Assembly (NCBI GenBank): GCA_004402915.1
Contig: SORU01000004.1
Location: 11,525 to 75,524, forward strand
Direction: 5' to 3'
DNA from: Fidelibacterota bacterium MT.SAG.2
Lineage (GTDB): Bacteria; Fidelibacterota; SORT01
DNA length: 64,000 bases
Each line of letters begins with the position of its first letter. Within the stretch, counting starts at the first letter, position 1. The notes under the pieces were generated by a model. It ran no database searches. It saw only the letters and a program-made list of their open reading frames with translations, and had not been told where the DNA came from. Position numbers and translations under genes: made by a program. Shown here one piece after another: positions 9,744-27,049 of this stretch.

Positions 9744-10073
9744 ATGAACGTGTATGTAAATAATCTGTCACACGCTGAAATTAGCGGTGAACTCCGCACA
9801 GCATTTGAAGTTCATGGCACGGTCGCATCGGTTACAATAATCACCGACGAGTTCAATGGAAGAAAAAGGGGATTCGGTATCATCGAAATGCCTGACGAGA
9901 TCGAAGCAAAATCAGCCATTGAGGCGTTAGAAGGTATTAAGGTCGCTGGGCATGATCTTCATTTGAGTGACAGGCGAACTGTTTCGAGCCGAAGAGTAAG
10001 CCGGGACAGGCGGGATGACGTAAAGAGAAAACAGATGGGAGAACGTCGAAACAAGACCGAAAGACGCAAGTAG
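9744..10073 (+). CDS. RRM-type RNA-binding protein with Arg-rich C-terminal tail
   Basis: RNP-2 VYVNNL and RNP-1 RGFGIIEM motifs. Tail SRRVSRDRRDDVKRKQMGERRNKTERRK. Confidence 0.9.
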   Translation: MNVYVNNLSHAEISGELRTAFEVHGTVASVTIITDEFNGRKRGFGIIEMPDEIEAKSAIEALEGIKVAGHDLHLSDRRTVSSRRVSRDRRDDVKRKQMGERRNKTERRK

Positions 10074-10151
10074 ATTGAATGAGAAGATCGAAGAATCCAT
10101 TAGAACAATAGAGGAAGAATTCAATTCACTTAAAAGAGTCGATACAGATAA

Positions 10152-10177
10152 GTGCCGGAGGCGGGAGTCGAACCCGC
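10152..10177. repeat. distal att repeat: exact 26-bp copy of the 3' end of tRNA-Leu(CAA)
   Basis: GTGCCGGAGGCGGGAGTCGAACCCGC is identical to 22861-22886. No D or anticodon arm follows it. Confidence 0.8.
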
Positions 10178-10299
10178 TACCATAATCCTGTAAACCTTTG
10201 TTATCAATGCATACAGAGATCATAAAATCAAACCGGTACGGTGACGGTATTAATTATTCCAACATTATTATTTTTCGGATTACTGATGTATCATAGAGT

Positions 10300-10665
10300 A
10301 TGCAGAATAGAACACCATTAGATAAGAAGTATAGAGCTGTTAAACTCCTTTCAGCCTCTCAACGATTTTGGGGAAGTAGATTTGTTCCTCGATTTAGGGA
10401 AGTTGCCCGGGAATTAGATATGACACCTCAAAATTTAATTACTATTTGGCAGAATAGAGAAGCAATTGAGATTCGAGCAAATAGAAATCTCTCACAGAGT
10501 CAGATATCAAATATTAATGAAAATGAGATCAAACAAGTAGAAAAGAGGGCTAATCAGTTATTATCCAAACACGAAAATGACGACTACTCTAAAATGAAAG
10601 TAGATAAACTGATTGAGGCTATGGATGATATGTTCGAAGGTCTTTTACTTACTCTAAATCGATAA
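10300..10665 (+). CDS. hypothetical protein, possible HTH (island-borne)
   Basis: FREVARELDMTPQNLITIWQNRE looks like a helix-turn-helix. No family recognised. Confidence 0.4.
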   Translation: MQNRTPLDKKYRAVKLLSASQRFWGSRFVPRFREVARELDMTPQNLITIWQNREAIEIRANRNLSQSQISNINENEIKQVEKRANQLLSKHENDDYSKMKVDKLIEAMDDMFEGLLLTLNR

Positions 10666-10926
10666 TTGTCAATGTGTGTGCATGTAAGAGATAATATTTT
10701 CAAAAAGTACCATTAAGATACAAATCAGCTGAATCTTACTATATCACAGGTTTTATCCGGATTAAATGGATAAGGATTTTCATTTCCTTAGTTACTATTT
10801 AAGGTCAAATGTATGCAATATAATCTCAGTATACGCTGATTTGTTTGCATAAGAACTTGACACTGATAATTATCCCTTTTTTAATTTTTCAGTGGTGTGT
10901 AAGAGGGCATTATAACTAAGTAGGAA

Positions 10927-10955
10927 GGGGGCGCCCGCTTGATTGGGGGGTGTGG
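10927..10955 (+). repeat. island GC-rich motif, copy a (GGGGGCGCCCGCTTGATTGGGGGGTGTGG)
   Basis: Similar to copies at 14539-14570 and 19064-19098. Flanked by the 7-bp inverted repeat AAGTAGG/CCTACTT (10918-10924, 10956-10962). Confidence 0.5.
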
Positions 10956-10956
10956 C

Positions 10957-12225
10957 CTACTTCAACAACACCATCTTCCTCGTAAGGACGAAATCGCCTG
11001 CTTGGAGGCGGTAGAAGTAGATGCCTGAGGAAATGTTTGATGCGTTCCATTTGACCGTGTAACTTCCAGCTGGTTTTCGTTCATCGATTAGGTGAGCTAC
11101 TTCCTCTCCAATCAGGTTATACACCACGAGCGACACTTCCTCCGCTTTCGGGATAGAATACCTTATCACCGTCTCCGGGTTGAAAGGATTCGGGTAGTTC
11201 TGGCTTAATTCGTATTTCTCGGGAACGACTCCTTCATCCGCTATGCCAACTGATATCGAAGTTGCATAACCTATTTGGAACTTTTGACCAGAAGCTAGAC
11301 CAGTATACCATAAGTGGTATGAAGTACCATCATATAGCACTGAAGGAACTATAAGCATTGACCAATCCCAAACATTAAAAGGACCAACAGGAAGGACAGG
11401 GTTAGACGCGTGCTTCGTCCACACAAGTCCGTCTGTCGAGGTCGCATACCCGATTTGGGTTAATTGAGCCCCCCTTCCACCTTCATACCACATTTCGTAA
11501 ATACTCCCGTTGTAAATGACCGCATCCACGCCTGCTTTTGCGTTGTCCCATTCCCCAGAAGCTCCAAAGTTCATGACGGGGTTAGAGGGGTGCTTCGTCC
11601 AAGTGATACCATCCGGCGAGGTCGCATATCCAGTTCGAAAGTTGAAGTCGTTGCCGCCGGTGCCGATGTACCAACCTTGATAATCGCTTCCATTAAATAT
11701 CACGGCACTGATACCAGCCCAGAAGCCATCCCATTCCCCACCAGCTCCCACGTCCAGGACAGGGTTAGACGCGTGCTTCGTCCACACAATTCCGTCTGGC
11801 GAAGTCGCATATCCAGTTCGAGAGATTGCGCCATCATAGCCCCGATACCACATCTTGTAACTGCTTCCGTCAAAGATAACTGCTCCCGGAGTAACGCTTT
11901 CATCATCCCAGCTGCCGGATGGACCCAAGTCAATAACAGGGTTAGACGCGTGCTTTGTCCAGCTAATTCCATCAGATGATTCTGCATATCCAATTCGCCA
12001 TTTGCGGTCGGTGAATAATCCCCATCCGGCATACCACATCTTGAAAGTGCTGCCGTCGAGTATTACTTCCGAAAAAGCGGCTGCCTCGTTTTCCCACGAT
12101 TCAGCTGGTCCTTTACGTAACACGGGATTACCTTCATACTTTGTCCAATCGGTTTGTGCCTGTGTGGCTGTCCCTACTGGAATGAACAGCGATGCTGCAA
12201 TAAATATGATAGTAACTTTCTTCAT
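10957..12225 (-). CDS. secreted 5-bladed beta-propeller protein (GH43/GH130/DUF377-like blades) with T9SS C-terminal sorting domain
   Basis: Signal peptide. Five reiterations of W.Y.G....(I)GYA.S.DGI.WTKH.SNPV. C-terminal QNYPNPFNPETV...SGIYFYRLQAGDFVLTRKMVLLK. Confidence 0.8.
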   Translation of the reverse strand: MKKVTIIFIAASLFIPVGTATQAQTDWTKYEGNPVLRKGPAESWENEAAAFSEVILDGSTFKMWYAGWGLFTDRKWRIGYAESSDGISWTKHASNPVIDLGPSGSWDDESVTPGAVIFDGSSYKMWYRGYDGAISRTGYATSPDGIVWTKHASNPVLDVGAGGEWDGFWAGISAVIFNGSDYQGWYIGTGGNDFNFRTGYATSPDGITWTKHPSNPVMNFGASGEWDNAKAGVDAVIYNGSIYEMWYEGGRGAQLTQIGYATSTDGLVWTKHASNPVLPVGPFNVWDWSMLIVPSVLYDGTSYHLWYTGLASGQKFQIGYATSISVGIADEGVVPEKYELSQNYPNPFNPETVIRYSIPKAEEVSLVVYNLIGEEVAHLIDERKPAGSYTVKWNASNISSGIYFYRLQAGDFVLTRKMVLLK

Positions 12226-12300
12226 TTTAACCTCCTAACTACTTTCTTAGATTGACATAGAGCGAAATGGTGTGTCATAACTTACGTTTATGGGACACTG

Positions 12301-14172
12301 TTATTTGAGGAGTAGCATCTTGCGAGTTTGCACGAAATCGCCTGCTTGGAGGCGGTAGAAGTAGATTCCAGAGGTGAAGTTTGATGCATCCCAAATAACT
12401 TGGTGATTCCCTGCTTGCTGAAAACCGTCAACGAGACTGGTTACTTCTTCAGCCAAAAGATTATACACCGTCAATCTCACCTCTCTCGATTTAGGGAGTG
12501 TATATTCTATTGTAGTTGTAGGATTAAATGGGTTGGGATAAGCATTAGATAGAGCATATTCTGTTGGTAATTCAGTTATCTCATCCTCAACTCCTATTCC
12601 AATACCAGGTGGCACAGCCAATACAAAACTATCTGTCCAATAAGTAAATCCTTCACTCGAAATCTCAATATCAAATGGAATAAGTAGCACTTCAGCTGAA
12701 GCACAAATTGAATTAATCACTACTTTGAATTCATAAAAGCTTGGTTGCATACTGCTTCCTCCAGCAGATATATCACCATAATGGGCAAATCCCGAAATAA
12801 TACTTCCTACACACATATCGGAAGTGGATATCTTAGCCCCTATGTCACTTGCAGTCGCCGCCAAACCATTATTAGCTAATGTCAAAGTAAAGAAATAACT
12901 ACTACTATTACTGGATGTGCTATCTTGACCGTCATAAACTATTGGACCGATCGTTGTGAATGTAGCTAATCCATGAGGACCAAGATACTCATTATCATCA
13001 AGATCCATGGTGCTGACATGAACGGAGAAATGGGATTCCATCGATTGAGGTTGAATCGTGCCACCTACCAAACCGTCAAGTGCAGATCCATCACCATGTT
13101 CACCATCATCAAACAATAGGATACTATCCACGAGTGTGCTATCGAAACTCTGAATAATGGCATGGGCGGTATAGGAATGATCATCCGTATTTGTAATTTG
13201 AGCCGTAACGGCTATCATAGCCGGTCTTCTCCCGATAATCATGAAGGATGAACTCAGCTCTAAATTAATTGCCCATACGCCGTTTATTGAGAAACTGTCG
13301 CTGTTGAAGAATTTCCATAATTCTACATCGGCGATAATATCACGATTTGTAGGTCCAAAGATAGGAAATGTCACTTCCCACTCTTCACTCCATCCAGGCC
13401 ACGTATGACCAACCCCATACATTTTATATAACACAACTGAAGAATTTTCCGTACAGTTTCGATGAATAAAGACGTCGATATAACCTCCATCCCAAGGATC
13501 AATATCCGGCAATCGGATAGTATCGGCTGGAAGGACACAGCCATTTATGGCAAGCCACTGATCCATGGTTTCCTCTACGGAAAACTGTCCAGCCGGTCCA
13601 CCTACACCATTATAGAGAACAATTGGATCAGCGGTACCGTGCATAAATAACATCGGTATCGGAAAGGCAGAATTACAGCTCGCGGTTGTCGTTCTGGTCA
13701 TTGCCCCCGAGACTGACGCGGCTTTAGCAAAACGATCGTTCAACTCACAGGCAAGTCTGACAGTCATAGCTCCACCATTGGAAAATCCGAACACATAGAT
13801 GCGGTCCAAATCGATAGCATAATCAGCCTGAAGAGTATCAATGAGTGCGGAAATGAATCCGACATCGTCAACATTCGGAGTCTGAAAATTGATCCCGCTA
13901 TTCCATCTGTCATCGATTGCCTTAGGATAACAGACTATGAATCCCGCTGTGTCTGCAACCTCCTTCATGAAGGTATAATTCATATGGTCTTCTGCTGATA
14001 CATCATAACCGTGGAGGGAAAACACTAGCGGGCCATTCGGTCCACTCGAACTTGGCACATACATTATGTATTCTCGTTCAAGACCATCATGCATAATGCT
14101 GCCATATTCCACTTGGCCAAAAGCAATACTACTAAACAGGATGACTATTAAGCCGACTGTAGATTTTTTCAT
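12301..14172 (-). CDS. secreted esterase (PHB depolymerase / feruloyl esterase family) with T9SS C-terminal sorting domain
   Basis: Start trimmed to MKKSTVGLIVILFSSIAFGQ. LVFSLHGY...KAIDDRWN...GFSNGG (GxSxG) and HGTADP fit the LpqC/PHB-depolymerase esterase fold. C-terminal NAYPNPFNPTT...SGIYFYRLQAGDFVQTRKMLLLK. Confidence 0.8.
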   Translation of the reverse strand: MKKSTVGLIVILFSSIAFGQVEYGSIMHDGLEREYIMYVPSSSGPNGPLVFSLHGYDVSAEDHMNYTFMKEVADTAGFIVCYPKAIDDRWNSGINFQTPNVDDVGFISALIDTLQADYAIDLDRIYVFGFSNGGAMTVRLACELNDRFAKAASVSGAMTRTTTASCNSAFPIPMLFMHGTADPIVLYNGVGGPAGQFSVEETMDQWLAINGCVLPADTIRLPDIDPWDGGYIDVFIHRNCTENSSVVLYKMYGVGHTWPGWSEEWEVTFPIFGPTNRDIIADVELWKFFNSDSFSINGVWAINLELSSSFMIIGRRPAMIAVTAQITNTDDHSYTAHAIIQSFDSTLVDSILLFDDGEHGDGSALDGLVGGTIQPQSMESHFSVHVSTMDLDDNEYLGPHGLATFTTIGPIVYDGQDSTSSNSSSYFFTLTLANNGLAATASDIGAKISTSDMCVGSIISGFAHYGDISAGGSSMQPSFYEFKVVINSICASAEVLLIPFDIEISSEGFTYWTDSFVLAVPPGIGIGVEDEITELPTEYALSNAYPNPFNPTTTIEYTLPKSREVRLTVYNLLAEEVTSLVDGFQQAGNHQVIWDASNFTSGIYFYRLQAGDFVQTRKMLLLK

Positions 14173-14446
14173 CCAGGTCTCCAAGGTTAACCTATTGCCT
14201 CCCCACACCCCACAGCCCATTTATATCTATAAACATGATTTCTGATTTGTCTTGTTTACAAGATATGAATAATATCTGCCAAATCAAGATTTTAATTAGT
14301 GTGCCCATTCTGTGCCCAACTAAAGATAACAAAACGGAACGAATCGGAATGAATCGTAGCAAAACGACACTTGGGTAAATCCCCGATATTAGGGGATTAG
14401 AAGAGCATATTGGGCTCTATTATTGGTTTTTACCTCTTTTGAGGCA

Positions 14447-14488
14447 TAGCGGGAGAGTCTGGGAATCGAACCCAGCGGATCTAATCGC
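14447..14488 (-). other. orphan tRNA 3' fragment (T-arm plus 3' acceptor strand, no 5' half)
   Basis: The reverse complement reads GATTAGATCCGCTGGGTTCGATTCCCAGACTCTCCCGC: CTGGG-TTCGATT-CCCAG T-arm, then ACTCTCC. The sequence 5' of it has no D or anticodon arm. Confidence 0.6.
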
Positions 14489-14538
14489 CCCGTAAATTTT
14501 CATAAAGTGTGCAAGAGCGGTATATAACTATATTTGAT

Positions 14539-14570
14539 GGGGTGTCCCCAAAGGTTAGGGGGTATGCCCC
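14539..14570 (+). repeat. island GC-rich motif, copy c (GGGGTGTCCCCAAAGGTTAGGGGGTATGCCCC)
   Basis: Two GGGG-N3-CCCC mini-hairpins. Alignable with 19064-19098 and 10927-10955. An inverted relative lies at 14183-14218. Confidence 0.5.
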
Positions 14571-14598
14571 TTTAATATTATTTTTAAGGAGGTTTCAA

Positions 14599-14802
14599 TT
14601 GATAGATACACACAAACGTTTCGAAAGGGCTTGGAAGGATTTAAACGAGGAACAAAGAGCGGGTATCGACAAGAGAATAGCCAAAATAATGTATTTTGCT
14701 GGTGTGATCGACGGTATGACGTCTTCCACAGATAGTCTTAAATCTATGCATGTACCGGAGATCGTTAAAGAGATATTAAAATCAGGAACTCCGAATAAAT
14801 AG
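14599..14802 (+). CDS. small hypothetical protein (67 aa)
   Basis: The track ORF is trimmed to the TTG at 14599, which has AAGGAGG 6 nt upstream. The upstream part of the track ORF merely translates the GC-rich motif. Confidence 0.5.
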   Translation: MIDTHKRFERAWKDLNEEQRAGIDKRIAKIMYFAGVIDGMTSSTDSLKSMHVPEIVKEILKSGTPNK

Positions 14803-15102
14803 ATTATATGTATGGTATCAACCCAGTTTTCAATTCAGCATCTTAGCATTTCCAATGATGCCATATAACAGGAACATGTAGTTCTTAGTAGACTCGAAAT
14901 GCAGACAGCTGAAATCGACAAAATTCGATTTTAAGATATGCTTGTCGTTCAGGGTAGTATCAAATATATATCAAAGTTTTGACGAGCTTACAATGGCAAA
15001 TAGAAAATTAAGTGCCCCTATGTTGTAGCTACTTGCATGACCAGTGATTTCTTGTATAGATACATTTGCCACATTTACGCCCTTTGGAGTTTTGCAACCC
15101 AA

Positions 15103-15303
15103 TTAACTTATTTGTGATAACTTTCGAGTAACTCTTTTATAAATCGAAGAGGGGAAAATAACACACTTTCCAACACTACCATCCGGATATCTATATGTTG
15201 CATCAACTTCTACTTTCTTCCAGCGAATTATCTTAGAAAATATGCTTGGATCGTCGGTATACAGTTTATACCAGCCCTTTCCATATTGCCATATCTCGAT
15301 CAT
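15103..15303 (-). CDS. small hypothetical protein, last gene of the island replication operon
   Basis: Its start overlaps the dnaB stop by 4 nt. No family recognised. Confidence 0.5.
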   Translation of the reverse strand: MIEIWQYGKGWYKLYTDDPSIFSKIIRWKKVEVDATYRYPDGSVGKCVIFPSSIYKRVTRKLSQIS

Positions 15304-16622
15304 GAGTTTCCCTTTAATGCTGATTTCATTTCACTTTTGTTATCACATGTGTATTTCCCTGATTTTGGTTCAAATTCGAGGATTATATTTCCCGTTCTTC
15401 CGTGTCTGTTTTTTGCGATAAATATACATACTTTACCTTCCGGTTCCCTTTGATCGTACTTGTGAAGCCAATGAATAAGTAAGACAACATCCCCACTTTC
15501 TTCAAGTGATCCACTACCTTTAAGATTCTCAGCGCGAGGTAGTTTATCGCCTGGTTCAGAACCTCGATTTATTTGAGACAGAATTATTACTACACATTTT
15601 TCTATCTTGGCAATATGTTTTAATCCCTTCATTATTTCTTCGATCTGGTATGCCCGATTCTCGCCTTTTGAAAATCTCATGTGTTGGATAAAATCCACAA
15701 TCAGGACATCAGGTTTATGTGTTATAACAGATTTATGAATTGAGTTTAGAGTATACAGATCATCCAAAAGGGTAAAATTATCGAGGTTATAAAACTCTCT
15801 ACCTTTGTCGTTTATTATCTCTCTTTCTTCGGTGGTAAGCCAACCGCTACGCAATTTTTCATAGGGTATACCCGTACCCAATGAAATGATCTTTTTAAAC
15901 AATTCCGATTTTGTCATTTCCAGCGATACAAACAATACCTTCTTGCCACTGACAGCCAAATTATAAGCGAAATTCACCGCGAGACTTGTCTTTCCCTGTG
16001 AAGTACGTCCACCCAGAACAATCAAGTTTCCGGGTTGAAAGCCTCCCGTCATTCGGTCTATGCTTTCGAATCCCGTTAATAAACCTTTCGACTCTTCTCT
16101 CTGTATGCCATCTACCACCCTCGATAGTTCTTCTGAATAGTTATAGTCATTAATCGTGTTACCCCTTGATAACAGGTTAATCTTCTCTCTGTAGGATTCT
16201 ATCAGTTCCATGCTCGCCGTTGAATCGTTATATCCATCTGCGGTCATTGTCACTCCGAGCGAAATAAGTTGCCGGTGTAAAGCCTTCTCAATAACGATGT
16301 TTATATGAAAGTTTACGTTAGAGGTAGATGGCGTACTTTCAAGAAGCCCTGTAACGTAATAACTCCCACCTACTTTTTTGAGTTGACCTAAACGCTTTAG
16401 TTTATCCGATACCGTTATCTGGTCAATTGGAAGTGAATCATCAAACAGTTTTTTCATGGCAGAGAAGATGTCTCTGTGAATATCAAAGTAGAATAGAGTG
16501 GGATCCGCTATTCTGGCAATCGTATTCGGAACAATGTCTTTACTCATCATCATAGCCCCAAGAACTGCTTCCTCGGCTTCTCTTGAATGTGGAGGGATAC
16601 GGTTGTTGTCTGCCCCATTCAT
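15300..16622 (-). CDS. dnaB: replicative DNA helicase DnaB (island-encoded)
   Basis: N-terminal PPHSREAEEAVLGAMM, Walker A GGRTSQGKTSLAVN, DFIQHM, and an SQINR-type motif. Confidence 0.9.
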   Translation of the reverse strand: MNGADNNRIPPHSREAEEAVLGAMMMSKDIVPNTIARIADPTLFYFDIHRDIFSAMKKLFDDSLPIDQITVSDKLKRLGQLKKVGGSYYVTGLLESTPSTSNVNFHINIVIEKALHRQLISLGVTMTADGYNDSTASMELIESYREKINLLSRGNTINDYNYSEELSRVVDGIQREESKGLLTGFESIDRMTGGFQPGNLIVLGGRTSQGKTSLAVNFAYNLAVSGKKVLFVSLEMTKSELFKKIISLGTGIPYEKLRSGWLTTEEREIINDKGREFYNLDNFTLLDDLYTLNSIHKSVITHKPDVLIVDFIQHMRFSKGENRAYQIEEIMKGLKHIAKIEKCVVIILSQINRGSEPGDKLPRAENLKGSGSLEESGDVVLLIHWLHKYDQREPEGKVCIFIAKNRHGRTGNIILEFEPKSGKYTCDNKSEMKSALKGNS

Positions 16623-17437
16623 GACATTACCTCATACGGTCTGATAGGCTCTTCCGGTATTGGTGGTTCCATATTAAATGCAAACACATCAAAATATCTC
16701 GTACCGTCTTTATCATCCCTTCTGAATTTTACTGGCGATAGGCAGGTTGCCCTCCAAAATTGATCTGAAGTTACCCACATGATAATTTCCTCGATTTTAG
16801 AATATTCTTCTCCATCAATACGATGTAGTTTTACAATAGAATCTGTCCAGGTTTTTAGAGTATGTTCTTTTTTGCTTTCCCTTATATTTACCCCACTCAT
16901 TTTTAGGAATAGGTGTGCTAATCTTTTTGCTTCTTCAGAATACTCTAACCTCGAATCATTTTTTCGATTCGAAGGTTTCTTTAATATATTTCTTTTTTCT
17001 TTTGTGGTAGTCTGTTTCGAGTACAATTTTGTAGTCTGTTTAGAGTACTCTTTGTAGTCTGTTTTGACTACAATTGAATTATCCTTTGTAGTCTGTTTCG
17101 ATGACAAACCAATCCACTTGTCGTAATCTTTCTGTAGTCGATACTCATAGTCCCCTCTTTTACTACAGGGTTTTCTTTCAATCACCATTTTATAAAGTAA
17201 TTTATTGACCGCTCGGTGAACATTTTGCTTTGGAATACCCGTATAATTTGAAAATTGCGAATAAGCGATCCTATCCCAGATTTTTTTATTGCCATTATTG
17301 TCGATATACCCCCAAGTCTTTCGGATAATCACATCGACTATCCTTCTCTCGGATGCCGGTACATTCAATCTTGCGAGAGCTTCGAGAATTTCATTCGAAA
17401 TCGAGGTATATCCATTTTCTTTTTGTGGATTTGCCAT
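16619..17437 (-). CDS. replication initiator, phage lambda O-like N-terminal winged-helix domain
   Basis: GYTSISNEILEALARLNVPASERRIVDVIIRKTWGY resembles the Phage_rep_O N-domain. The central SKQTT peptide repeats are encoded by the iterons. It overlaps dnaB by 4 nt. Confidence 0.7.
   Translation of the reverse strand: MANPQKENGYTSISNEILEALARLNVPASERRIVDVIIRKTWGYIDNNGNKKIWDRIAYSQFSNYTGIPKQNVHRAVNKLLYKMVIERKPCSKRGDYEYRLQKDYDKWIGLSSKQTTKDNSIVVKTDYKEYSKQTTKLYSKQTTTKEKRNILKKPSNRKNDSRLEYSEEAKRLAHLFLKMSGVNIRESKKEHTLKTWTDSIVKLHRIDGEEYSKIEEIIMWVTSDQFWRATCLSPVKFRRDDKDGTRYFDVFAFNMEPPIPEEPIRPYEVMS
17005..17105. repeat. iteron array (putative origin of replication of the island) inside the initiator gene
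   Basis: Four 20-nt units T(T/G)GTAGTCTGTTTnGAnnAC start at 17005, 17029, 17052 and 17086. An A/T-rich tract lies at 16981-17003 next to them. Confidence 0.7.
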
Positions 17438-17465
17438 TCAAATTCTCCATAATTACATCATGCTT

Positions 17466-17768
17466 TTATATAAATTCATGATCATAAATAATTGATTTTA
17501 GATCATCGATCGAGCTTTTGTATAATATGGCTGAAATCTTACCACCATTTTCATAATCCATAATTACATCTCTTGCTTTGGGTTCGAAAAGAAAATAGAC
17601 TGACTTTCCTTCTCGGATAATATCAACCATTTTGACGCCCTTTGACTTAATAAAAGCTGCGCCCCAAATATCTTTTATTTTTAATATTTTAACCTCGTTT
17701 TTTGGATTCAACATTCCTTTTTCCTTTAATTCATTGAGATAGACTGATATATGTTTAAATTCACCCAT
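17466..17768 (-). CDS. small hypothetical protein (resembles DUF5659-type phage proteins, unverified)
   Basis: AAFIKSKGVKMVDIIREGKSVYFLFE...DDLKSIIY pattern. Its start overlaps the xis-like gene stop by 8 nt. Confidence 0.45.
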   Translation of the reverse strand: MGEFKHISVYLNELKEKGMLNPKNEVKILKIKDIWGAAFIKSKGVKMVDIIREGKSVYFLFEPKARDVIMDYENGGKISAILYKSSIDDLKSIIYDHEFI

Positions 17769-17994
17769 TCATTGGCTCCCAGCCACGCTCTTGTAGCCAT
17801 TTCTTCACGTTTTCTTTTGCAAATCGAAGTCGTTTAGGTGAGACCCTGATGACTGGAAATTGTTGTGTAAGAACCAATGAATATAAGCGCTCACGGCTGA
17901 TTCCGAGCCAAGAGGATAATTCTTTCGAATTGTAAAGAAGTGGAAGTCCGCTCGGAATATCTTCGTCTACTATCTTATTTACATCTTTTTCCAT
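17761..17994 (-). CDS. xis: excisionase-family HTH DNA-binding protein
   Basis: SKELSSWLGISRERLYSLVLTQQFPVIRVSPKRLRFAKENVKKWL fits the Xis/AlpA/MerR-type HTH_17 pattern. It sits at the head of the replication module. Confidence 0.65.
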   Translation of the reverse strand: MEKDVNKIVDEDIPSGLPLLYNSKELSSWLGISRERLYSLVLTQQFPVIRVSPKRLRFAKENVKKWLQERGWEPMNG

Positions 17995-18114
17995 ATGGAA
18001 AAGAATCTATGATAAGTATAACTCTTCTGTCAACGGATATAAGAAAAGGCGATTAAGATGCTCTCTTTTTTCTACCTTAAGATATTATGTTTAAAGAATA
18101 TAGGCTTTAGTTAT

Positions 18115-18900
18115 TTAGAGAATTAGATACTTTTTTTTCTTGAAAGATTCGAATAAAATTTTGACGTCAGCACTAAGACTTGGTAAAAATATTTCTTTAT
18201 ACTGTTTTGCCGCGGGATTAAGTAATGAAGATTTTAGAATTTTCTCAGCATGTTTCTTGTCGGATGAATTCGAAAATTCCCATGTACCATTGTTGCTTAT
18301 ATCTTCTCCAATAGAATTCCAAGAAACCTTAAACTCTTTGAACAATTCAATAATTAATCGAGTTTGGTCAATCGGCTCGATACCGTAATCATTTAAATTC
18401 ATTATAAGTCCACCAAACATAACTGCGAGAGGTACTACATGACCAATGTTTTCTCGTTTTTTCCTCACTCTAAAAGTTGATTTTAATTTCTTAATTATAT
18501 CTTCAATTTCACTTGGTTCAGGAAGCGTCTGAAGTTTTTCAAATGCAAAGTCATTATAAGTCTTTAAAGTATTTAGGAAGTGTTCTTCTGCGGCTATATG
18601 TTCTTTAATGTAATCTCTGATAAATTTATAATGTTTCATTCTATTTTTTTCACTTTGTTCCATATAAAAAACTGCATGTATCAGAGTACTAGCCATCCGC
18701 TTAATATCATTTTCGGTTAAATCTGGCTTATAGCTTGAAAGTACACATTTGTCACTACTAAATAATTTTATGAGTCTTGGGAGATTTCGTTGATAAATTT
18801 TATTAATTTTTTTATCAAATTTAACTATTTCATATTTCTTGTCTACTTCGGCAGGCGTTAAGATAATTTTCTGTTTAATATTGGGTTTTATTTTGCCCAA
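18115..18900 (-). CDS. hypothetical protein (261 aa, Lys-rich, island cargo)
   Basis: Long ORF in a very AT-rich region. No motif recognised. Confidence 0.5.
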   Translation of the reverse strand: MGKIKPNIKQKIILTPAEVDKKYEIVKFDKKINKIYQRNLPRLIKLFSSDKCVLSSYKPDLTENDIKRMASTLIHAVFYMEQSEKNRMKHYKFIRDYIKEHIAAEEHFLNTLKTYNDFAFEKLQTLPEPSEIEDIIKKLKSTFRVRKKRENIGHVVPLAVMFGGLIMNLNDYGIEPIDQTRLIIELFKEFKVSWNSIGEDISNNGTWEFSNSSDKKHAEKILKSSLLNPAAKQYKEIFLPSLSADVKILFESFKKKKYLIL

Positions 18901-19063
18901 TGTAAATCTCCATCTAAATTAAACATCTTGTATAAAATATGGTATATAACCCTGATACACAAACCCATATAATGTATCCACTCAATTATATTTTATACTA
19001 ATCAGGGAAACCTCGTGGAAATATTTAAATTATGTGTGCGTGTGGCATATATATATTAATGAA

Positions 19064-19098
19064 GGGGTACCCCCGCTTGGTTGGGGGGTAGGGGGTAG
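19064..19098 (+). repeat. island GC-rich motif, copy d (GGGGTACCCCCGCTTGGTTGGGGGGTAGGGGGTAG)
   Basis: GGGGTACCCC palindrome followed by G-tracts. Aligns with copies a and c. Confidence 0.5.
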
Positions 19099-19345
19099 TG
19101 CTATATAACTTGATATTAAGTCCTGATTAATACTCTTTTAAATAGATCGATTATTGCACATGAGTATAGTATATACGCACTCGAATGCTTGTAAATATAG
19201 ATCACAGGTCTATCCGGTATTAATTCCGGTATCATTGGTCCTCTCAAACAATTATTAATATGCCAAAATGGACTTCTTCAGCTAATAATTTAGGCGGACT
19301 AAGAAATAGAAAAAGAATTGGCCCAAATTAGTTTTGTAACTCTGG

Positions 19346-19828
19346 CTATTTGTCAAAGAACTGATACCACCGAGGTGAATGTAGATCCCTAAAAAAATCG
19401 AAGGGAGTCTGATCATAATCTGGGTTAAGATCCGCTTCAAGTGACTCAATTACGGTGATATATAAATCTGTTTGGTCACTGGATATTAACCTTCTAACGA
19501 AGGCTTCTTTCACTACATTTGTATCTACTAATTTATAAATCTTAAAAAAATAATGTGAGACAAATCTTCTGGCCCTATCCAATTCATCTGTGGGAAGATC
19601 ATCTGTACCCGCTGAACGATCATTCCAGATACTAAGAAGTCTCAGATTTTCCAGCATCTCATGAGAAGCATATTCACTGAGAAGCTTAAGTATAATCGGA
19701 GCTCGAATTGCTTTATTCGTAATCCTTGCTGAGCGCCACGCTGCGCCAGCAGCGACTGCAGCGGATACTGCAGTCAGCAAGGATATAAACGGAATCCATG
19801 GTTTTAAATGGACAAGAAATTCATTCAT
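19346..19828 (-). CDS. small single-pass membrane protein (160 aa; size and layout reminiscent of DUF4760, unverified)
   Basis: N-terminal TM WIPFISLLTAVSAAVAAGAAW, then a helical soluble domain. Confidence 0.5.
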   Translation of the reverse strand: MNEFLVHLKPWIPFISLLTAVSAAVAAGAAWRSARITNKAIRAPIILKLLSEYASHEMLENLRLLSIWNDRSAGTDDLPTDELDRARRFVSHYFFKIYKLVDTNVVKEAFVRRLISSDQTDLYITVIESLEADLNPDYDQTPFDFFRDLHSPRWYQFFDK

Positions 19829-19884
19829 TTCACATCTCGTAATTGATTATTCAACCCTCATAATCTTCTGGACGGAGTTGATAT

Positions 19885-20454
19885 TCATTTTATAAATCCA
19901 GAAAATACTTCATCAAAGTCTCTAATGAATACGAGATGTTGATTTGATATTTGTGGATGTATCATAAATACAAGTTTAACAGAGCTGTTAATTGTGCATG
20001 TTACTGTACCTCCCACTACTTCACTGCCTTCGGGTAACATTCTAATAAAGATCTGGGCAAGATCTACATTCTCCAACGATAACACTATTACCCCACTGAG
20101 ACTTTTAGGTGGACTCATTACAACGTTAGCTGTATAGACAACCTGGCCGTTGCCATTTTGTTTTCCATAACTATCGGAGGATTCCAGAACCATCATTGTA
20201 TCATTATTACTTCCTAATGCAAAATAAGTATTTCCATCCATAAAATGTGTATCGATTTTTGCATCTGAATCGATTACTACGTCTATCTTGGCCATAGCAC
20301 TTAGAATTTGTTGACGAAAAGGACTACTTGCCTCAATCCGTTGTGTAAAATAATGAACACCATAAATTGATAGACCAACTAAAACCGTCCCAAAGAGGCC
20401 AATTCCGACAAAGATGGTTCTCCCAGTATCGGGATTCATAGTAGGTTTGTACAC
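19885..20454 (-). CDS. small single-pass membrane protein (189 aa), unknown function
   Basis: N-terminal TM IFVGIGLFGTVLVGLSIYGV. It lies 56 nt upstream of, and co-oriented with, the 160-aa TM protein. Confidence 0.5.
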   Translation of the reverse strand: MYKPTMNPDTGRTIFVGIGLFGTVLVGLSIYGVHYFTQRIEASSPFRQQILSAMAKIDVVIDSDAKIDTHFMDGNTYFALGSNNDTMMVLESSDSYGKQNGNGQVVYTANVVMSPPKSLSGVIVLSLENVDLAQIFIRMLPEGSEVVGGTVTCTINSSVKLVFMIHPQISNQHLVFIRDFDEVFSGFIK

Positions 20455-20684
20455 CAGTCATGTTCTGGATAAAGATTCATATTCAATTGAGGCCCAATAT
20501 AGCCCAAATCAATGTTCCCTTATAAATTTTAGACTCCACTGAAATTATCCTTTTAAAATTTAGTTTAACCGATTCGAAAGAAATATATATCATGAAGTAT
20601 GAACAGAAATATACCTGAGAGAATATCGTAAATCAAGGTCAATTTATTGCTTGAAATTATTAAAATGGTGTGTATATTAGGTAC

Positions 20685-20837
20685 ATGAAGCGAATTAACC
20701 ATCACCTGACAGAAAAACAAATTAAAAAATTGAAGGCGCAATCTAAGAAAAGCGGACTATCCGCTTCGGAGATTATAAGACGTGCCTTGGACGAATATTT
20801 AGAGAGGCTTAAAGAAATGGAACGTACTACTAAATAA
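20685..20837 (+). CDS. ribbon-helix-helix (CopG/Arc/MetJ-like) DNA-binding protein, 50 aa
   Basis: Not in the ORF track because it is under 60 aa. Sequence MKRINHHLTEKQIKKLKAQSKKSGLSASEIIRRALDEYLERLKEMERTTK has the beta-strand, helix, helix layout of RHH repressors and antitoxins. Confidence 0.6.
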   Translation: MKRINHHLTEKQIKKLKAQSKKSGLSASEIIRRALDEYLERLKEMERTTK

Positions 20838-20955
20838 AAAGTTGCAATGCCGATAGCGTCAACTACCGGAGAAGCTTAATTCATGCGGATTTCATTCACT
20901 GCCGATTGAGGTTTGAATAAATGAGATATCTAACAAAGCATAAATTGCTGGAGAG

Positions 20956-21690
20956 ATGATGAACATGACAATTCCCAATCATACGGTCTATAAAAATATC
21001 AGAAAGTTCAGAAATGATAGACTGAAAAATAACGTTGATAAAATAGCAAAAGACTTATTTACCGTTGATGCAACAAAACTTAACGGTCCTATGGTGGTGC
21101 TGCATTGTGTGCCGATTGGAAGTTCGCCTGAACCAGATAAATTAATAGATATTGGTGATTACCACTTACATTTTTCAAATTTATTACGCGGGTATACGGA
21201 TACGAAAACCCATTATGGTTCAAGTGGAATTACCATTAGTGCAGATAACTCATATTGTATGTTTATGAATAAAGGTGCAAAGTTGGAATATGCATCTGTT
21301 CTATTTTCAGATACTGAAAAAAAGCCATATTTTATAGATATACGGAAATTAGAAGGATTCGTTATTCAATTAATGACAGATTATATTTCTATATTGAAAA
21401 ACATAGATATTGGTCCATCAATGGTTGTCCTATTATCGATAATACATACTTCCGATTCCAAGTTAAAGATTTCTGATAAGATAATTAATGATAACAAAGA
21501 ATATTTAAAAGGGATAGAAGGACATAAGATCGATGTCAAGAAATTGTTAGTTCCAGAGATCCTTATTGATGATTATACCAATGACATAAATATGGAAAAA
21601 ATATTTCATCCTATTTTTAATATCATTTGGAATGCTGGTGGATATCCAGGTTCACTATTGTATGATGAGAATGAAAATAGAATTGACTAA
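20956..21690 (+). CDS. hypothetical protein (244 aa) between the RHH gene and the integrase
   Basis: GGAGAG RBS. No motif recognised. Confidence 0.5.
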   Translation: MMNMTIPNHTVYKNIRKFRNDRLKNNVDKIAKDLFTVDATKLNGPMVVLHCVPIGSSPEPDKLIDIGDYHLHFSNLLRGYTDTKTHYGSSGITISADNSYCMFMNKGAKLEYASVLFSDTEKKPYFIDIRKLEGFVIQLMTDYISILKNIDIGPSMVVLLSIIHTSDSKLKISDKIINDNKEYLKGIEGHKIDVKKLLVPEILIDDYTNDINMEKIFHPIFNIIWNAGGYPGSLLYDENENRID

Positions 21691-21705
21691 AATGAGGTTT
21701 TAATC

Positions 21706-22773
21706 ATGGCATCAATTTTTAAGCGTAAAGATACAGGTAAGTGGTATGTTCAGTGGTATTACAAAGGAAAATTATGCCGCGAACTAATAGGTAAATCAAA
21801 AGAAGCAGCTAAAATCAGAATGGGTGAAATTACTCTTAAGATTGAATTAGGACAGTTTTCGATACAATCTAATGCAAGTTTGGAATCATTGATCAAATCA
21901 TTCAAGGAATCATTGGACGCTGAATCGCATTCTGAAAGTTATAAGCGTAGACTTGGTAATATCTTTAATAACTTCGAAAGATATTTCATTGCTGAAAAAA
22001 TCGAAAGATTGAAAGAGGTTGATTTTCCGGTTCTCGATCAATACATCACCAAACGGATAAACCAAGATGGGATTGCTCCTAAAACTGCTAACATGGAGAT
22101 TGATCTGTTACGAAGGATGTTCGATCATGCAGTAAAGTATAAATTCATTCTTGAAAATCCGGCAAAAGAACTAAAGCGCAAAAAAGTTACACGCAAGGAA
22201 CCGAGATATTTTACAAATGAAGAGATAGAACTACTCTTAGAGAATGCCGATAAATATGAACCATTTTTTATGGTTCTATTGCATACGGGGCTCAGAGCCT
22301 CTGATGCCGGAAATCTAAAGTGGTCAGATATCGATCTTGAGAAAGGGTTCATCCGGGTGATTCAGGAGAAAACCGATAGGCGATTAACCATTCCAATTAA
22401 TGATTCTTTGCGGAATTATCTATTGGATTATGCCACTGAATCTTCTAAATTATTTCCATCCTTAGATACTGATAAGAAGAGAGAGAAAGTAAGGCGTTTC
22501 ATTAAGAAGATACTTAAGGACGCTGAATGCGATTGGATGGGAGTAGGCTGTCACACATTCAGACATACATTTGCTTCGCATCTTGTGATAAATGGAGCCA
22601 GTATATATGATGTTCAAAAATTGCTCGGACACAGGTCGATCAGTATGACTCAAGTCTATGCACATTTAAGTGAGGATGCTACACGGAGAGCAGTGGACTT
22701 ATTAGAATTCAATGTTAAAACCGGTATTAATCCGGTATTAATTGCCAGCGGTCATCAGCGGAAAAGGGCATAA
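21706..22773 (+). CDS. int: tyrosine site-specific integrase
   Basis: N-terminal SAM-like domain. Catalytic LHTGLRASD (R) and HTFRHTFASHLVINGASIYDVQKLLGHRSISMTQVYAHL (H-x-x-R, H, Y). Confidence 0.92.
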   Translation: MASIFKRKDTGKWYVQWYYKGKLCRELIGKSKEAAKIRMGEITLKIELGQFSIQSNASLESLIKSFKESLDAESHSESYKRRLGNIFNNFERYFIAEKIERLKEVDFPVLDQYITKRINQDGIAPKTANMEIDLLRRMFDHAVKYKFILENPAKELKRKKVTRKEPRYFTNEEIELLLENADKYEPFFMVLLHTGLRASDAGNLKWSDIDLEKGFIRVIQEKTDRRLTIPINDSLRNYLLDYATESSKLFPSLDTDKKREKVRRFIKKILKDAECDWMGVGCHTFRHTFASHLVINGASIYDVQKLLGHRSISMTQVYAHLSEDATRRAVDLLEFNVKTGINPVLIASGHQRKRA

Positions 22774-22861
22774 ACAGTATGTTTCTGAAAATGGCTATAG
22801 TGGTTAATAACACAGGCGTAAAGCCTTGTTTTATTAGACTTTTAGAGGGTGTAAAAAGAGT

Positions 22862-22945
22862 GCCGGAGGCGGGAGTCGAACCCGCACGCTCTTGCGAGCG
22901 GAGGATTTTGAGTCCTCTGCGTCTACCAGTTTCACCACCCCGGCA
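22862..22945 (-). tRNA. tRNA-Leu(CAA), class II with long variable arm; integration target
   Basis: The reverse complement is GCCGGGGTGGTGAAACTGGTAGACGCAGAGGACTCAAAATCCTCCGCTCGCAAGAGCGTGCGGGTTCGACTCCCGCCTCCGGCA. It has a 7-bp acceptor stem, anticodon loop CT-CAA-AA and T-loop TTCGACT. Confidence 0.9.
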
Positions 22946-23028
22946 TGGAGATGAAATATAAAAAATTGCAAAACAATGTCAATCATATTAGTTAATCATG
23001 TTAGAATTTCGACATTAAGGAGGTAATA

Positions 23029-24822
23029 ATGGATTTTAGATCACTTCCGGATATGCTGCGAACCAACGCAAACAGATATGGTGATAAGGCGGCAATGCTA
23101 ATAAAAAGCGGTGACGAATGGAAAGAGATAACATATGCTGAGTTCGGAGAAAAAGTTCGTCTGATTGCTGAGGGGCTTGTCTCGCTTGGAATTGCGGCAG
23201 GCGAAAAGGTTGCACTACTTTCTGAAAATAGACCGGAGTGGTCTATGAGTGATTTCGGTATTCAGTCAGCGAAAGCGATAGTTGTACCGGTATATCCTAC
23301 TCTGATAAGCAAGCAGATTGAATATATTCTGCGAAATTCCGGAGCTAAATTTATAATTGCATCAACAGCAGAACAAGCTGAGAAGGTAGTACCGCTTCTT
23401 GATAGCATAGAAAATCTATCTAAACTCATTCTGATGGAAGGCGGGGACAACTTCGATAACGAAAGCATAATTTCTTTTGATGATCTTTTAGAAGCAGGTA
23501 AGCAATACAGAAAAAACAACGAAAATTGGTATCATGAGACTGTTGATAAGATCGATAAAATGGAAATGATGACGATAATATACACGTCCGGGACCACGGG
23601 AGATCCTAAAGGAGTTATGCTTTGCCATAATAATTTTATGTCGAATATTGAAGCAGTATTAGAGCCGATCCCGATCTCTAAAGATGATATATTTCTATCT
23701 TTTCTCCCATTGAGTCACGTATTTGAGAGAATGGCAGGAAACTTTGTTCCTTATGCTCTAGGCTCGACAGTTGCTTTTGCTGAAAGTATAGAAAAGGTGG
23801 CGGAGAATATGGGCGAGGTACATCCTACCATAATGACAAGTGTTCCACGTCTGTATGAGAAGATGTATACCAAAATTAATATTGCGGTGGATGAGGGTTC
23901 ACCAGTGAAGAGAAAGCTGTTCCGGTGGTCGTTCAGAATTGGCGATGAGATGCAGAAAGCCCAAAAAGCGGGAACAGTCAGCGCGGGACTGAAGTTTAAG
24001 CATGGGATTGCGAGTAAGCTCGTTTTCAGCAAACTGAAGACTCGGATGGGCGGTAAATTGCGATTCTTTGTTTCAGGCGGAGCGCCGCTATCGCAAGAGA
24101 TCGGCGAGTTTTTTTCAATGGCGGGTATAACCATCATCGAGTGCTACGGTCTAACAGAAACTTCACCCGGGATTACAGCGGGTGTAGCGGGAGATGTTGT
24201 GTTTGGAACAGTTGGACCTCCTCTTAACAACGTAGAGGTCAAAATCGAGGAGGACGGCGAGATACTTACGAGGGGTCCTCATGTTATGTTAGGATATCAT
24301 GACAATGAAGAGGCAACCAAGGAGATAATAGATAGTGATGGTTGGCTCCATACGGGCGATATAGGTGAATTTGATGATGGAGGAAGATTAAAAATAACCG
24401 ACAGGAAAAAGAATATACTCGTCACCGCAGGGGGTAAGAATATAGCGCCTGCTCCGATTGAGAATATGCTTATCACAAGTCCGATTATCGAACAAATAAT
24501 GCTTATTGGTGACCGGCGTAAATTTATCAGCGCGGTAATTGCTCCGGATTTTGTAAACCTCAAATCACTCGCGAAAAAAAGGGGAATCAGCATCTCCTCT
24601 AATGAGGAACTTGTCAGCGATCCCGAAGTATATAAATTGATGGAAGAGGAATTAGACAAATTGCTTGTAGATATTTCTAATTTTGAACGAGTGAAGAAGT
24701 TCATAATGATACCACGTTTATTGACTATAGAGGATGGAGAAATAACACCAAGTCTGAAGATCAAACGAAAAGTTATAATCGAGAAGTTTGCCGGTCAGAT
24801 CGATGCGCTATATGAGGATTAA
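23029..24822 (+). CDS. fadD: long-chain fatty-acid--CoA ligase (AMP-forming)
   Basis: AMP-binding motif IIYTSGTTGDPKGVML, plus GYGLTE-like YGLTETS and GWLHTGD. Confidence 0.85.
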   Translation: MDFRSLPDMLRTNANRYGDKAAMLIKSGDEWKEITYAEFGEKVRLIAEGLVSLGIAAGEKVALLSENRPEWSMSDFGIQSAKAIVVPVYPTLISKQIEYILRNSGAKFIIASTAEQAEKVVPLLDSIENLSKLILMEGGDNFDNESIISFDDLLEAGKQYRKNNENWYHETVDKIDKMEMMTIIYTSGTTGDPKGVMLCHNNFMSNIEAVLEPIPISKDDIFLSFLPLSHVFERMAGNFVPYALGSTVAFAESIEKVAENMGEVHPTIMTSVPRLYEKMYTKINIAVDEGSPVKRKLFRWSFRIGDEMQKAQKAGTVSAGLKFKHGIASKLVFSKLKTRMGGKLRFFVSGGAPLSQEIGEFFSMAGITIIECYGLTETSPGITAGVAGDVVFGTVGPPLNNVEVKIEEDGEILTRGPHVMLGYHDNEEATKEIIDSDGWLHTGDIGEFDDGGRLKITDRKKNILVTAGGKNIAPAPIENMLITSPIIEQIMLIGDRRKFISAVIAPDFVNLKSLAKKRGISISSNEELVSDPEVYKLMEEELDKLLVDISNFERVKKFIMIPRLLTIEDGEITPSLKIKRKVIIEKFAGQIDALYED

Positions 24823-27046: not shown

Positions 27047-27049
27047 ACG

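Follow-up and report, generated by a model that had tools for sequence, protein, structure and literature searches.

A site-specific insertion at tRNA-Leu(CAA) in hadal Marinimicrobia, with a predicted replicon and predicted type IX secretion cargo genes

The window analysed here is a stretch of 64,000 nucleotides from Fidelibacterota bacterium MT.SAG.2 (GenBank assembly GCA_004402915.1, contig SORU01000004.1, positions 11,525 to 75,524 of the forward strand), and it contains an island of 12,708 bp of inserted DNA at the 3' end of a tRNA-Leu(CAA) gene. The genes of the island diverge from a shared intergenic region: orf189, orf160, orf261, a helix-turn-helix (HTH_17) protein, a DUF5659 protein, the initiator RepO, the helicase DnaB and orf66 read leftward, while a ribbon-helix-helix (RHH) protein, orf244 and a tyrosine integrase read rightward. 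An earlier note on this DNA had named the integrase, the RHH and Xis-like proteins, RepO, DnaB and two proteins with hydrophobic segments, and all of these are present on the strands and at the coordinates it gave. Its gene list was incomplete, overlooking orf121, orf97 and two large cargo genes with sorting domains of the type IX secretion system (T9SS) that occupy 10957-14220, about one third of the element. The 15 open reading frames (ORFs) of the island were searched with Pfam, PHROGs and NCBIfam, and the unassigned and cargo ORFs were also searched with PADLOC.

The boundaries are defined by the 26-mer GTGCCGGAGGCGGGAGTCGAACCCGC, of which the 64-kb window has two exact copies, at 10152-10177 and 22860-22885. 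A third copy was not found in the window even at <=3 mismatches, shuffled sequences being expected to hold none, so the repeat is not a dispersed one. With the preceding A the identity extends to 27 bp (10151-10177 and 22859-22885). The right copy is the 3' end of a tRNA-Leu(CAA) that is intact on the minus strand according to both ARAGORN and Rfam (50.3 bits), and neither ARAGORN nor Rfam found a tRNA body after the left copy. The interpretation of the repeat in the earlier note, as the attL and attR of an insertion into a tRNA 3' end, is therefore borne out. Its coordinates for the left copy are exact, and those for the right copy (22861-22886) are one base off.

Contigs from the surrounding population were collected by exact match to the protein of the flanking RNA recognition motif (RRM) gene (9744-10073). 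In seven of them (L001-L005, L008 and L009), drawn from several metagenomes and the metagenome-assembled genome (MAG) GCA_022567635.1 (L009), the RRM gene is joined directly to tRNA-Leu(CAA) and an AMP-binding gene, the same gene that lies to the right of the island in the window. Alignment reveals that this empty site equals the left side of attL, one core and the right side of attR, base for base. The empty site for which the earlier note had proposed a search is thus present in several metagenomes and a MAG, and the relatives are not all of identical content. The occupied attL junction was recovered on independent contigs from different samples (L006, L007 and L012), a further contig (L010) stops exactly at the core end, and the attR junction, running from integrase through core to tRNA, lies on the independent contig L230. 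Since L230 and the empty-site contig L003 come from one metagenome (ERZ27267370), both alleles coexist in one population; and since the left flanks of occupied and empty contigs are 99.8-100% identical over 10 kb, the difference in presence must be recent relative to strain divergence. Metagenomes with this population are ERZ27267370, ERZ27267427, ERZ23500489, ERZ23495036, ERZ23495178 and ERZ23495181. Exact-pattern scans matched the attL pattern neither in JGI metagenome contigs nor in IMG/VR, and the pattern of the att arm, the segment between integrase and core, had no match in IMG/VR. We regard it as close to certain that the island is a genuine site-specific insertion. Its features, together with the sequences of the attachment sites, are collected in Table 1.

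Table 1. Features of the island in window coordinates, with the observed and predicted attachment-site sequences.
Feature	Coordinates	Strand	Description
attL core	10151..10177	.	27-bp copy of the tRNA-Leu(CAA) 3' end; exact repeat; overlap of the flank alignments in empty-site contigs
orf121	10300..10665	+	Small all-helical protein with an HTH-like segment, beside attL; sub-threshold family matches only
Cargo 1	10957..12225	-	422-aa secreted repeat protein; signal peptide; T9SS C-terminal sorting domain; weak GH130-like matches
Cargo 2	12301..14220	-	T9SS-sorted alpha/beta-hydrolase of predicted extracellular short-chain polyhydroxyalkanoate (PHA)-depolymerase type
Non-coding leader	14299..14484	-	About 190 bp, conserved, upstream of cargo 2; starts with a partial tRNA-like 3' fragment
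orf97	14509..14802	+	Small ORF; likelier TTG start at 14599 behind AAGGAGG
orf66	15103..15303	-	Small ORF overlapping the dnaB end; no family matches
DnaB-type replicative helicase	15300..16622	-	DnaB_C 3.4e-55; DnaB N-terminal domain 8.3e-28; phrog_19 3.6e-90
RepO, lambda-O-type initiator	16619..17437	-	PF04492 5.9e-15; phrog_277, phrog_678, phrog_16826, phrog_2514
Candidate origin	16989..17107	-	Four iterons, core AAACAGACTACAA, spacing 24, 23, 34; then an A-rich tract; inside repO
DUF5659 protein	17466..17768	-	PF18903 3e-5; conserved partner upstream of repO, with a homolog likewise in L148
HTH_17 (Xis/AlpA-like) protein	17761..17994	-	PF12728 1.8e-6; phrog_66 'excisionase and transcriptional regulator' 6.1e-6
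orf261	18115..18900	-	ORFan; 99% identical copy in L149
orf160 and orf189	19346..20454	-	Both with a hydrophobic segment at the N-terminus; they open the leftward operon; no family matches
Divergent intergenic control region	20455..20669	.	Separates the leftward replication set from the rightward RHH-orf244-int set
RHH (CopG/Arc-like) protein	20670..20837	+	RHH_1 1.6e-8; phrog_876 and phrog_3180 repressor families; likely start ATG 20687
orf244	20956..21690	+	ORFan in a variable slot just upstream of int
Tyrosine integrase	21706..22773	+	PF00589 8.5e-34; phrog_1 4.3e-72; full length; reads outward toward the tRNA
Integrase-proximal att arm	22774..22859	.	Kept among related elements of different species (alignment)
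tRNA-Leu(CAA) and attR core	22860..22944	-	tRNA 3' 26 nt (22860-22885) form the attR core; ARAGORN, Rfam
attB sequence			Left flank ...AGTCGATACAGATAA, core GTGCCGGAGGCGGGAGTCGAACCCGC, then ACGCTCTTGCG
attL sequence			Left flank AGTCGATACAGATAA, core GTGCCGGAGGCGGGAGTCGAACCCGC, then TACCATAATCCTG
attR sequence			...TTAGAGGGTGTAAAAAGA, core GTGCCGGAGGCGGGAGTCGAACCCGC, then ACGCTCTTGCG
Predicted attP (circle) sequence			...TTAGAGGGTGTAAAAAGA, core GTGCCGGAGGCGGGAGTCGAACCCGC, then TACCATAATCCTGTAAACC

Judged by its family matches, the integrase is a phage-type tyrosine recombinase with a predicted arm-binding N-terminus, where weak Pfam matches to Arm-DNA-bind_2 and SAM_5 are found. R197, K222, H283, R286, H309 and Y318 are invariant in an alignment of 18 integrase sequences. 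The possibility that the enzyme is a XerC/D paralog was ruled out by the phrog_1 match, the arm-binding domain match, the att-bounded polymorphic insertion and the sharing across species above flank identity; with all six catalytic residues present and a phage-type family, it is not the degenerate XerC/D protein that the earlier note had named as a possible refutation. Candidate arm-type integrase sites are provided by repeats of the motif CCGGTATTAAT, of which there are seven matches in the window against 1.4 expected. They include a tandem pair at 22721-22742, inside the 3' end of int and just upstream of the att arm, one copy with one mismatch at 10244-10254, about 70 bp inside attL, and an inverted pair at 19214-19229 in the gap between orf261 and orf160. 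A 98-aa ORF that runs across attL on the minus strand (9927-10223) and shares sequence with the end of the RRM gene is almost certainly spurious.

The integrase belongs to a tight family of 59-97% identical proteins, mostly on short metagenome contigs, and among named genomes the nearest contexts are two single-cell genomes from the Mariana Trench, Candidatus Marinimicrobia bacterium MT.SAG.3 and MT.SAG.4, and a Neomarinimicrobiota MAG. The integrase of contig L068 (MAG B25T3L8) is 93.4% identical in DNA to that of the window, compared with 82% for the adjacent AMP-binding gene and 78% for the next 5 kb, and in L015 the corresponding values are 86% for the integrase and 79% for the flanks. The 85-bp arm between integrase and core is likewise common to other species above the chromosomal background. 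As integrase and arm are more alike than the flanks, horizontal transfer to the same tRNA is the simplest reading, and the comparison points to movement of the integrase between species at tRNA-Leu. Beyond these contigs, a scan of IMG/VR with the integrase returned no relatives, a second metagenome scan with the integrase alignment returned only generic integrases <=35% identical, and an exact-protein look-up of the window integrase, DnaB and orf244 (P0233) gave no recorded match. Paralogous integrases, 63-64% identical, lie at other chromosomal sites in L071 (MT.SAG.3 SORT01000009) and L014 (ENA ERZ23500489 scaffold_90); no tRNA or other Rfam RNA gene is found near either, and the family therefore also uses a non-tRNA or unrecognised target.

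The second functional block is the RepO-DnaB module of 2.1 kb. The four AAACAGACTACAA iterons lie at 17003-17107, within the repO gene, and the C-terminal half of RepO matches helicase-loader and replisome-organiser PHROGs; the DnaB encoded by the gene after it is full length. RepO relatives in metagenomes form a family 57-99% identical. On one contig, L148, a repO that is 75% identical likewise has four iterons, placed as they are in the window and differing by one base in the core, and this conservation argues for a working origin. The arrangement recalls the early regions of lambda and P22, in which an O-like initiator carries the origin iterons inside its gene and, in P22, gp18 is accompanied by the DnaB-type helicase gp12: here too an O-family initiator (PF04492) has four iterons and an A/T-rich tract inside its gene and is followed by a helicase gene. 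The island differs from them in having no late genes and in its DnaB, which is <=~32% identical to the helicases of cultured phages and 71% identical to its homolog on L148. Cultured phages, Burkholderia phage KL4 among them, have an annotated pairing of RepO with DnaB as well. An IMG/VR scan with DnaB gave no relatives, and one with RepO gave only distant phage homologs, whose identity over the N-terminal part is at most 48%. Neither Pfam nor PHROGs showed a primase domain in the island ORFs, so the term "self-replicating" used in the earlier note has to be understood as initiator, helicase and origin, with the remainder supplied by the host. On that understanding RepO, the conserved intragenic iterons and DnaB support the claim that the element encodes its own replicon, from which it may replicate.

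Two small proteins are candidate regulators, the HTH_17 protein as an excisionase or regulator and the RHH protein as a repressor. An RHH homolog, 80% identical, lies upstream of int in L015. The product of orf244 has only two relatives, 60-63% identical, in 5.8 billion proteins: one gene is followed directly by the start of int, and the other is fused in frame to an RHH domain (P0235, ENA, 295 aa). The fusion suggests that the two proteins act together, for example as DNA-binding and sensor or effector domains, and orf244 appears tied in function to both of its neighbours, the RHH protein and the integrase. Other genes take its place before int in L015 and in L230. A structure of orf244 predicted by AlphaFold2 (AF2) without alignments was unusable (predicted local distance difference test, pLDDT, 28.8). 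The idea that RHH and orf244 together make up a relaxase was rejected, as no relaxase family match was found and the H-L-H (H-x-H) motif of orf244 is not kept in its homologs; the NikA-like match of the RHH protein, at 21.8 bits, is below the cut-off of 27. Scans of the island for sigma-70 promoters and terminators gave results at chance level, control region included.

The remaining small ORFs yielded little. orf121 occurs as an identical protein in L011 and L012; its AF2 model made without alignments has a pLDDT of 53, and Foldseek found no match to viral structures below E = 1. These results neither support nor exclude orf121 as a small terminase. Sequence searches of the PDB with orf244 and orf121 gave chance-level matches only. 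For orf261 only four weak or partial relatives were found among 1.84 billion representatives, and there was neither a family match in Pfam, PHROGs, PADLOC or NCBIfam nor a PDB match beyond chance. orf97 has no family matches in the same four collections.

The cargo module forms the distal third of the island (10178-14484) and is set apart by its base composition, the G+C of the cargo block being 44-49% against 29-40% in the rest of the island and about 39% in the flanks. Cargo 1 matches Por_Secre_tail at 3.2e-9 and TIGR04183 at 6e-11, and its weak GH130 matches are to beta-1,2-mannobiose phosphorylase. The 639-aa product of cargo 2 scores 155.5 bits against a cut-off of 150 with NF050058, the NCBIfam model for extracellular short-chain-length PHA depolymerase type 1, and also matches Esterase_PHB, Abhydrolase_2 and Por_Secre_tail (1.2e-8). 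Its likely true start, at 14172, yields a signal peptide, and it is predicted to be a PHA-depolymerase-type esterase.

Upstream of cargo 2 the leader recurs at 76-85% identity on two other contigs, twice on L013 (3641-3826 and 5015-5185; MT.SAG.4) and once on L069 (2466-2781; MT.SAG.3). Both are tRNA-Leu islands, in which the leader precedes T9SS cargo genes. The partial tRNA-like fragment at its start, GGGTTCGATTCCCAGACTCTCCCGC (14449-14473, minus strand), differs from tRNA-Leu; it has a single exact match in the window and is also present in L013. Neither a tRNA nor a tmRNA was recognised there by ARAGORN at relaxed thresholds or by Rfam at E <= 10. The fragment could be what is left of an att site, or a tRNA flank that was captured. 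The other repeated elements of the module are the sorting-domain ends of its genes: the last 60-90 bp of different T9SS genes and gene remnants share 83-98% DNA identity (window 10957-11049 and 12316-12393; L013, L069 and L071), rising to 90-98% over the final 60-70 bp, and a variant on L006 and L011 that does not have the 422-aa gene jumps from 11043 to 12316, between two ends coding for such C-terminal domains (CTDs). The near-identical tails and this jump lead to the conclusion that the cargo is modular and is exchanged by homologous recombination with resident islands, in which the sorting-domain coding ends seem to serve as recombination handles for cargo swaps. The internal partial tRNA would also be compatible with capture of flanking DNA by imprecise excision, a route that has been proposed for the tycheposons (10.1101/2020.12.28.424599).

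Capsid, portal, terminase, tail and lysis genes were not detected in any of the 15 ORFs (Pfam, PHROGs, NCBIfam), in agreement with the earlier note, which had reported no virion genes, and the PADLOC search gave no match to defence systems among the unassigned and cargo ORFs. A complete temperate prophage was accordingly ruled out, the element being 12.7 kb long and having no late, structural or lysis genes. An integrative mobilizable or conjugative element was also rejected, since no relaxase, coupling protein or type IV secretion system was matched in the island ORFs (Pfam, PHROGs). NBU1 of Bacteroides is a mobilizable element of about 10 kb that uses a tyrosine integrase to enter the 3' end of a tRNA-Leu gene and has a relaxase and oriT with no autonomous replication. 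The island resembles it in its size class of about 10 kb, in its host from the Fibrobacteres-Chlorobi-Bacteroidetes (FCB) group, and in its tyrosine integrase and target. It differs in that no relaxase was detected and in that initiator, helicase and origin are present.

Taken together, these features probably describe a site-specific integrative element of hadal Marinimicrobia (Neomarinimicrobiota) that has recently been mobile and that brings its own replicon and T9SS cargo. In the mechanism that we favour, the integrase would recombine the 26-27-bp core of the circularised element with its exact counterpart at the 3' end of tRNA-Leu(CAA) in the chromosome, so that the tRNA is whole again next to the integrase (attR) and a partial copy of it remains at the other end (attL). 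Excision is probably directed by the HTH_17 Xis/AlpA-like protein, and the RHH protein, working with orf244, probably represses the divergent leftward operon. Once excised, the circle would start theta-type replication in the lambda/P22 manner, with RepO binding the four iterons in its own gene beside the A-rich stretch and recruiting the DnaB of the element, and with primase and polymerase supplied by the host. The position of the cargo behind the partial tRNA-like fragment and shared leader suggests capture or exchange of host-type T9SS gene cassettes. As no virion, packaging or conjugation genes were detected, movement from cell to cell must depend on something else, and helper phage, vesicles, or transduction or transformation could provide it.

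A number of observations weigh against this account. Exact-pattern scans of JGI metagenome contigs and IMG/VR gave no match to the circular attP junction, and the full 12.7-kb structure is contiguous only in the window. At the same tRNA site, MT.SAG.3 and MT.SAG.4 have N-terminally truncated integrases beside debris of T9SS genes and other genes, and no replication module is found near these integrases within the 6-10 kb of available sequence. In addition, orf121, orf160, orf189, orf244 and orf261 could conceal packaging or interference functions. Lastly, while positions 1-19225 of the window are 99.4-99.8% identical to the ENA population (L007, L012, L149), positions 21686-32800, a stretch comprising the integrase and 10 kb or more of the right flank, are only about 94-95% identical to it (L230, L001-L005). 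The truncated integrases and debris imply that decay at the tRNA-Leu site is common, and repeated integration followed by decay would leave just such remains.

The switch in identity falls inside the island, between 19.2 and 21.7 kb, and so the window copy is either a recombinant with a relative of about 95% average nucleotide identity or a contig that merges two island-bearing strains. The existence and boundaries of the element are independent of the switch, and the exact combination of left and right parts depends on it. The sharpness of the shift could also be taken to mean that the 12.7-kb element is an assembly artefact, a chimeric join of unrelated sequences, the more so as the leader and CTD-coding tails are repeated and could mislead assemblers and as no other contig spans the whole. 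We consider this very improbable, however, because each of the two junctions, attL and attR, recurs on independent contigs of several samples, the internal segments at 16.5-19.2 kb (L149) and from orf244 to int (L231) are confirmed independently, and the empty sites match the boundaries to the base. At most, the left and right halves could be chimeric between two strains with related islands.

The contig that carries the closest replication module brings two further explanations into play. L148 (Logan SRR29093015_1611132, 7,969 bp) encodes a DUF5659 protein, RepO, DnaB, an HTH_17 gene and the start of an integrase, and before the replication genes it has three large uncharacterised genes (211, 279 and 1056 aa) and a fragment whose match is to a phage tail protein (phrog_10775, 1.7e-5). 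The 1056-aa protein matched none of 50,697 phage records and gave no more than a trivial match in IMG/VR, and the HTH_17 homolog touches PF05930 Phage_AlpA at 3.4e-4, below the cut-off. L148 is thus a probable fragment of a temperate phage with the same replicon, its phage nature depending on a single weak match. It leaves room for two readings: the island may have arisen from such a phage by deletion, or it may exploit one as a helper.

Under the first of these, the island would be a cryptic lambdoid prophage, a temperate phage that entered tRNA-Leu, lost its late, structural and lysis genes by internal deletion and had T9SS cassettes from resident islands recombined into it. It would be a remnant that may still excise, as opposed to a dedicated mobile element. 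Its layout is that of a lambdoid early region, with a regulator on the integrase side and a divergent operon containing xis, an O-type initiator with intragenic iterons and a helicase; its nearest replicon (RepO 75%, DnaB 71%) lies on the phage-looking L148; the junction between core and cargo is abrupt and marked by a foreign partial tRNA; and MT.SAG.3 and MT.SAG.4 show decay at this very tRNA. All of the mobility and replication ORFs are intact, however, and the att cores are identical; no fragment of a structural gene was found in relatives by tblastn with the island proteins or in the island by family searches. The insertion is, moreover, polymorphic in a near-clonal background and within one sample, and the integrase moves between species. 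Given also the slender basis on which L148 is called a phage, we think a decayed prophage unlikely.

Under the second, the island would be a phage satellite in the style of the phage-inducible chromosomal islands (PICIs) or the virion-encapsidated integrative mobile elements (VEIMEs), induced by a helper, excising, replicating from its own origin and packaged in helper capsids, with one or more of the unassigned ORFs redirecting packaging or interfering with the helper. For the PICIs and the related SaPIs (Staphylococcus aureus pathogenicity islands), five core components are specified in SatelliteFinder (de Sousa et al. 2023, PMC10085698). The island falls with them in the range of 10-15 kb, places a site-specific integrase at an end, has a regulatory region from which its genes diverge, and encodes an AlpA/Xis-like HTH protein and a replication module that is autonomous and includes an origin. 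Its accessory genes are likewise distal, tail and lysis genes are likewise absent, and its topology, with integrase and regulator facing xis, replication and accessory genes across the divergent region, is PICI-like (PMC10085698). The regulation component (an alpA, merR or stl homolog) may be represented by the HTH_17 protein (PF12728, 1.8e-6) and the RHH protein. The island differs from PICIs in that Pfam and PHROGs detected no primase-replicase, small terminase (terS) or capsid-morphogenesis gene, RepO and DnaB taking the place of Pri-Rep, so that it has two to three of the five core components. With three of the five absent, the label of PICI-like element or integrated plasmid offered in the earlier note was not established.

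What defines the VEIMEs of marine bacterioplankton is that they were recovered, as concatemers, from virus particles (Eppley et al. 2022, PMC9618062). They too are marine and integrative, mostly with tyrosine integrases, carry AlpA/excisionase and replication genes, have no major capsid gene and hold many orphans, and many have no recognisable packaging genes either (PMC9618062), so that the absence of structural and lysis genes from the island would fit a satellite, for which L148 offers a candidate cognate phage lineage with a related replicon. The resemblance of the island to the particle-recovered VEIMEs is one of gene content, and Marinimicrobia hosts, O-type initiators and DnaB are not mentioned in PMC9618062. 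Against a satellite stand also the missing packaging and primase-replicase genes, the scans of 2.9 million IMG/VR contigs, which matched neither the element nor its att arm, and a cargo of metabolic and secreted enzymes with no anti-phage match in PADLOC. A satellite of this kind seems doubtful to us.

The nearest functional counterparts are the tycheposons described from Prochlorococcus and other marine bacteria (Hackl et al., bioRxiv 10.1101/2020.12.28.424599). Like them, the island is small, targets a tRNA and leaves partial tRNA repeats, has its tyrosine integrase at an end, together with replication genes that form a small module (in tycheposons this can include a DnaB-type helicase, hel_DnaB being among the hallmarks, and RepO-DnaB is found here), carries a few kb of niche-adaptive cargo, in this case two predicted T9SS-secreted enzymes, and has no capsid or conjugation genes. 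Tycheposon islands are built up by degenerate integrases and extra partial tRNAs, to which the integrases of MT.SAG.3 and MT.SAG.4 and the internal tRNA-like fragment would correspond. There are also differences. The integrase reads outward, toward attR and the tRNA, whereas the tycheposon definition has it facing inward (10.1101/2020.12.28.424599); the initiator of the replication module is of the lambdoid O type, its iterons lying within the gene; and the T9SS-bearing Marinimicrobia that serve as host are outside the Proteobacteria from which related elements are reported. In function the island matches cargo-carrying tycheposons or PICI-like elements, and it lacks defining features of both. 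Literature searches turned up no paper describing mobile elements of Marinimicrobia. The novelty that the earlier note had claimed for T9SS-bearing lineages was overstated, functionally equivalent marine elements (tycheposons, VEIMEs) having been described.

Two gene clusters in the flanks are mentioned for completeness. To the left, at about 3400-8630 (L001 genes 4084-8886), lies a conserved cluster, unrelated to the island, whose genes encode multihaem cytochromes together with a cytochrome P460, a cytochrome b subunit and a 352-aa protein that weakly matches cytochrome c. To the right, at 44287-44633, a tRNA-Ala(CGC) gene is followed 6 bp on by a bacterial large signal recognition particle (SRP) RNA gene (RF01854, 128 bits).

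The Marinimicrobia are abundant uncultured ocean bacteria, for which this locus gives an example of attL, attR and attB resolved to the base pair. It adds a case to the established picture of tRNA-targeting elements that build genomic islands, overturning nothing and holding no surprise for specialists, and it helps in understanding how genes flow among hadal Marinimicrobia. The candidate integrase/att pair and the candidate origin could become genetic tools for bacteria of the FCB group. More tentatively, and we would call this improbable on present evidence, the island may be active and belong to a family, so far undescribed, of "hitchers" that depend on a helper or on vesicles, in which a lambdoid O/DnaB replicon and a tRNA-Leu integrase shuttle T9SS hydrolase cassettes between species. 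Each cassette would be marked by the shared leader, with its partial tRNA at the start, and by a CTD-coding tail that is nearly identical. If that were true, repeated visits followed by decay would build the variable tRNA-Leu island of the hadal single-cell genomes, and the tycheposon model of island formation would extend to the FCB superphylum and to secreted polymer-degrading enzymes. What the locus already suggests is that, in hadal populations, genes for secreted polymer-degrading enzymes may ride on a small vehicle made up of an integrase and a replicon.

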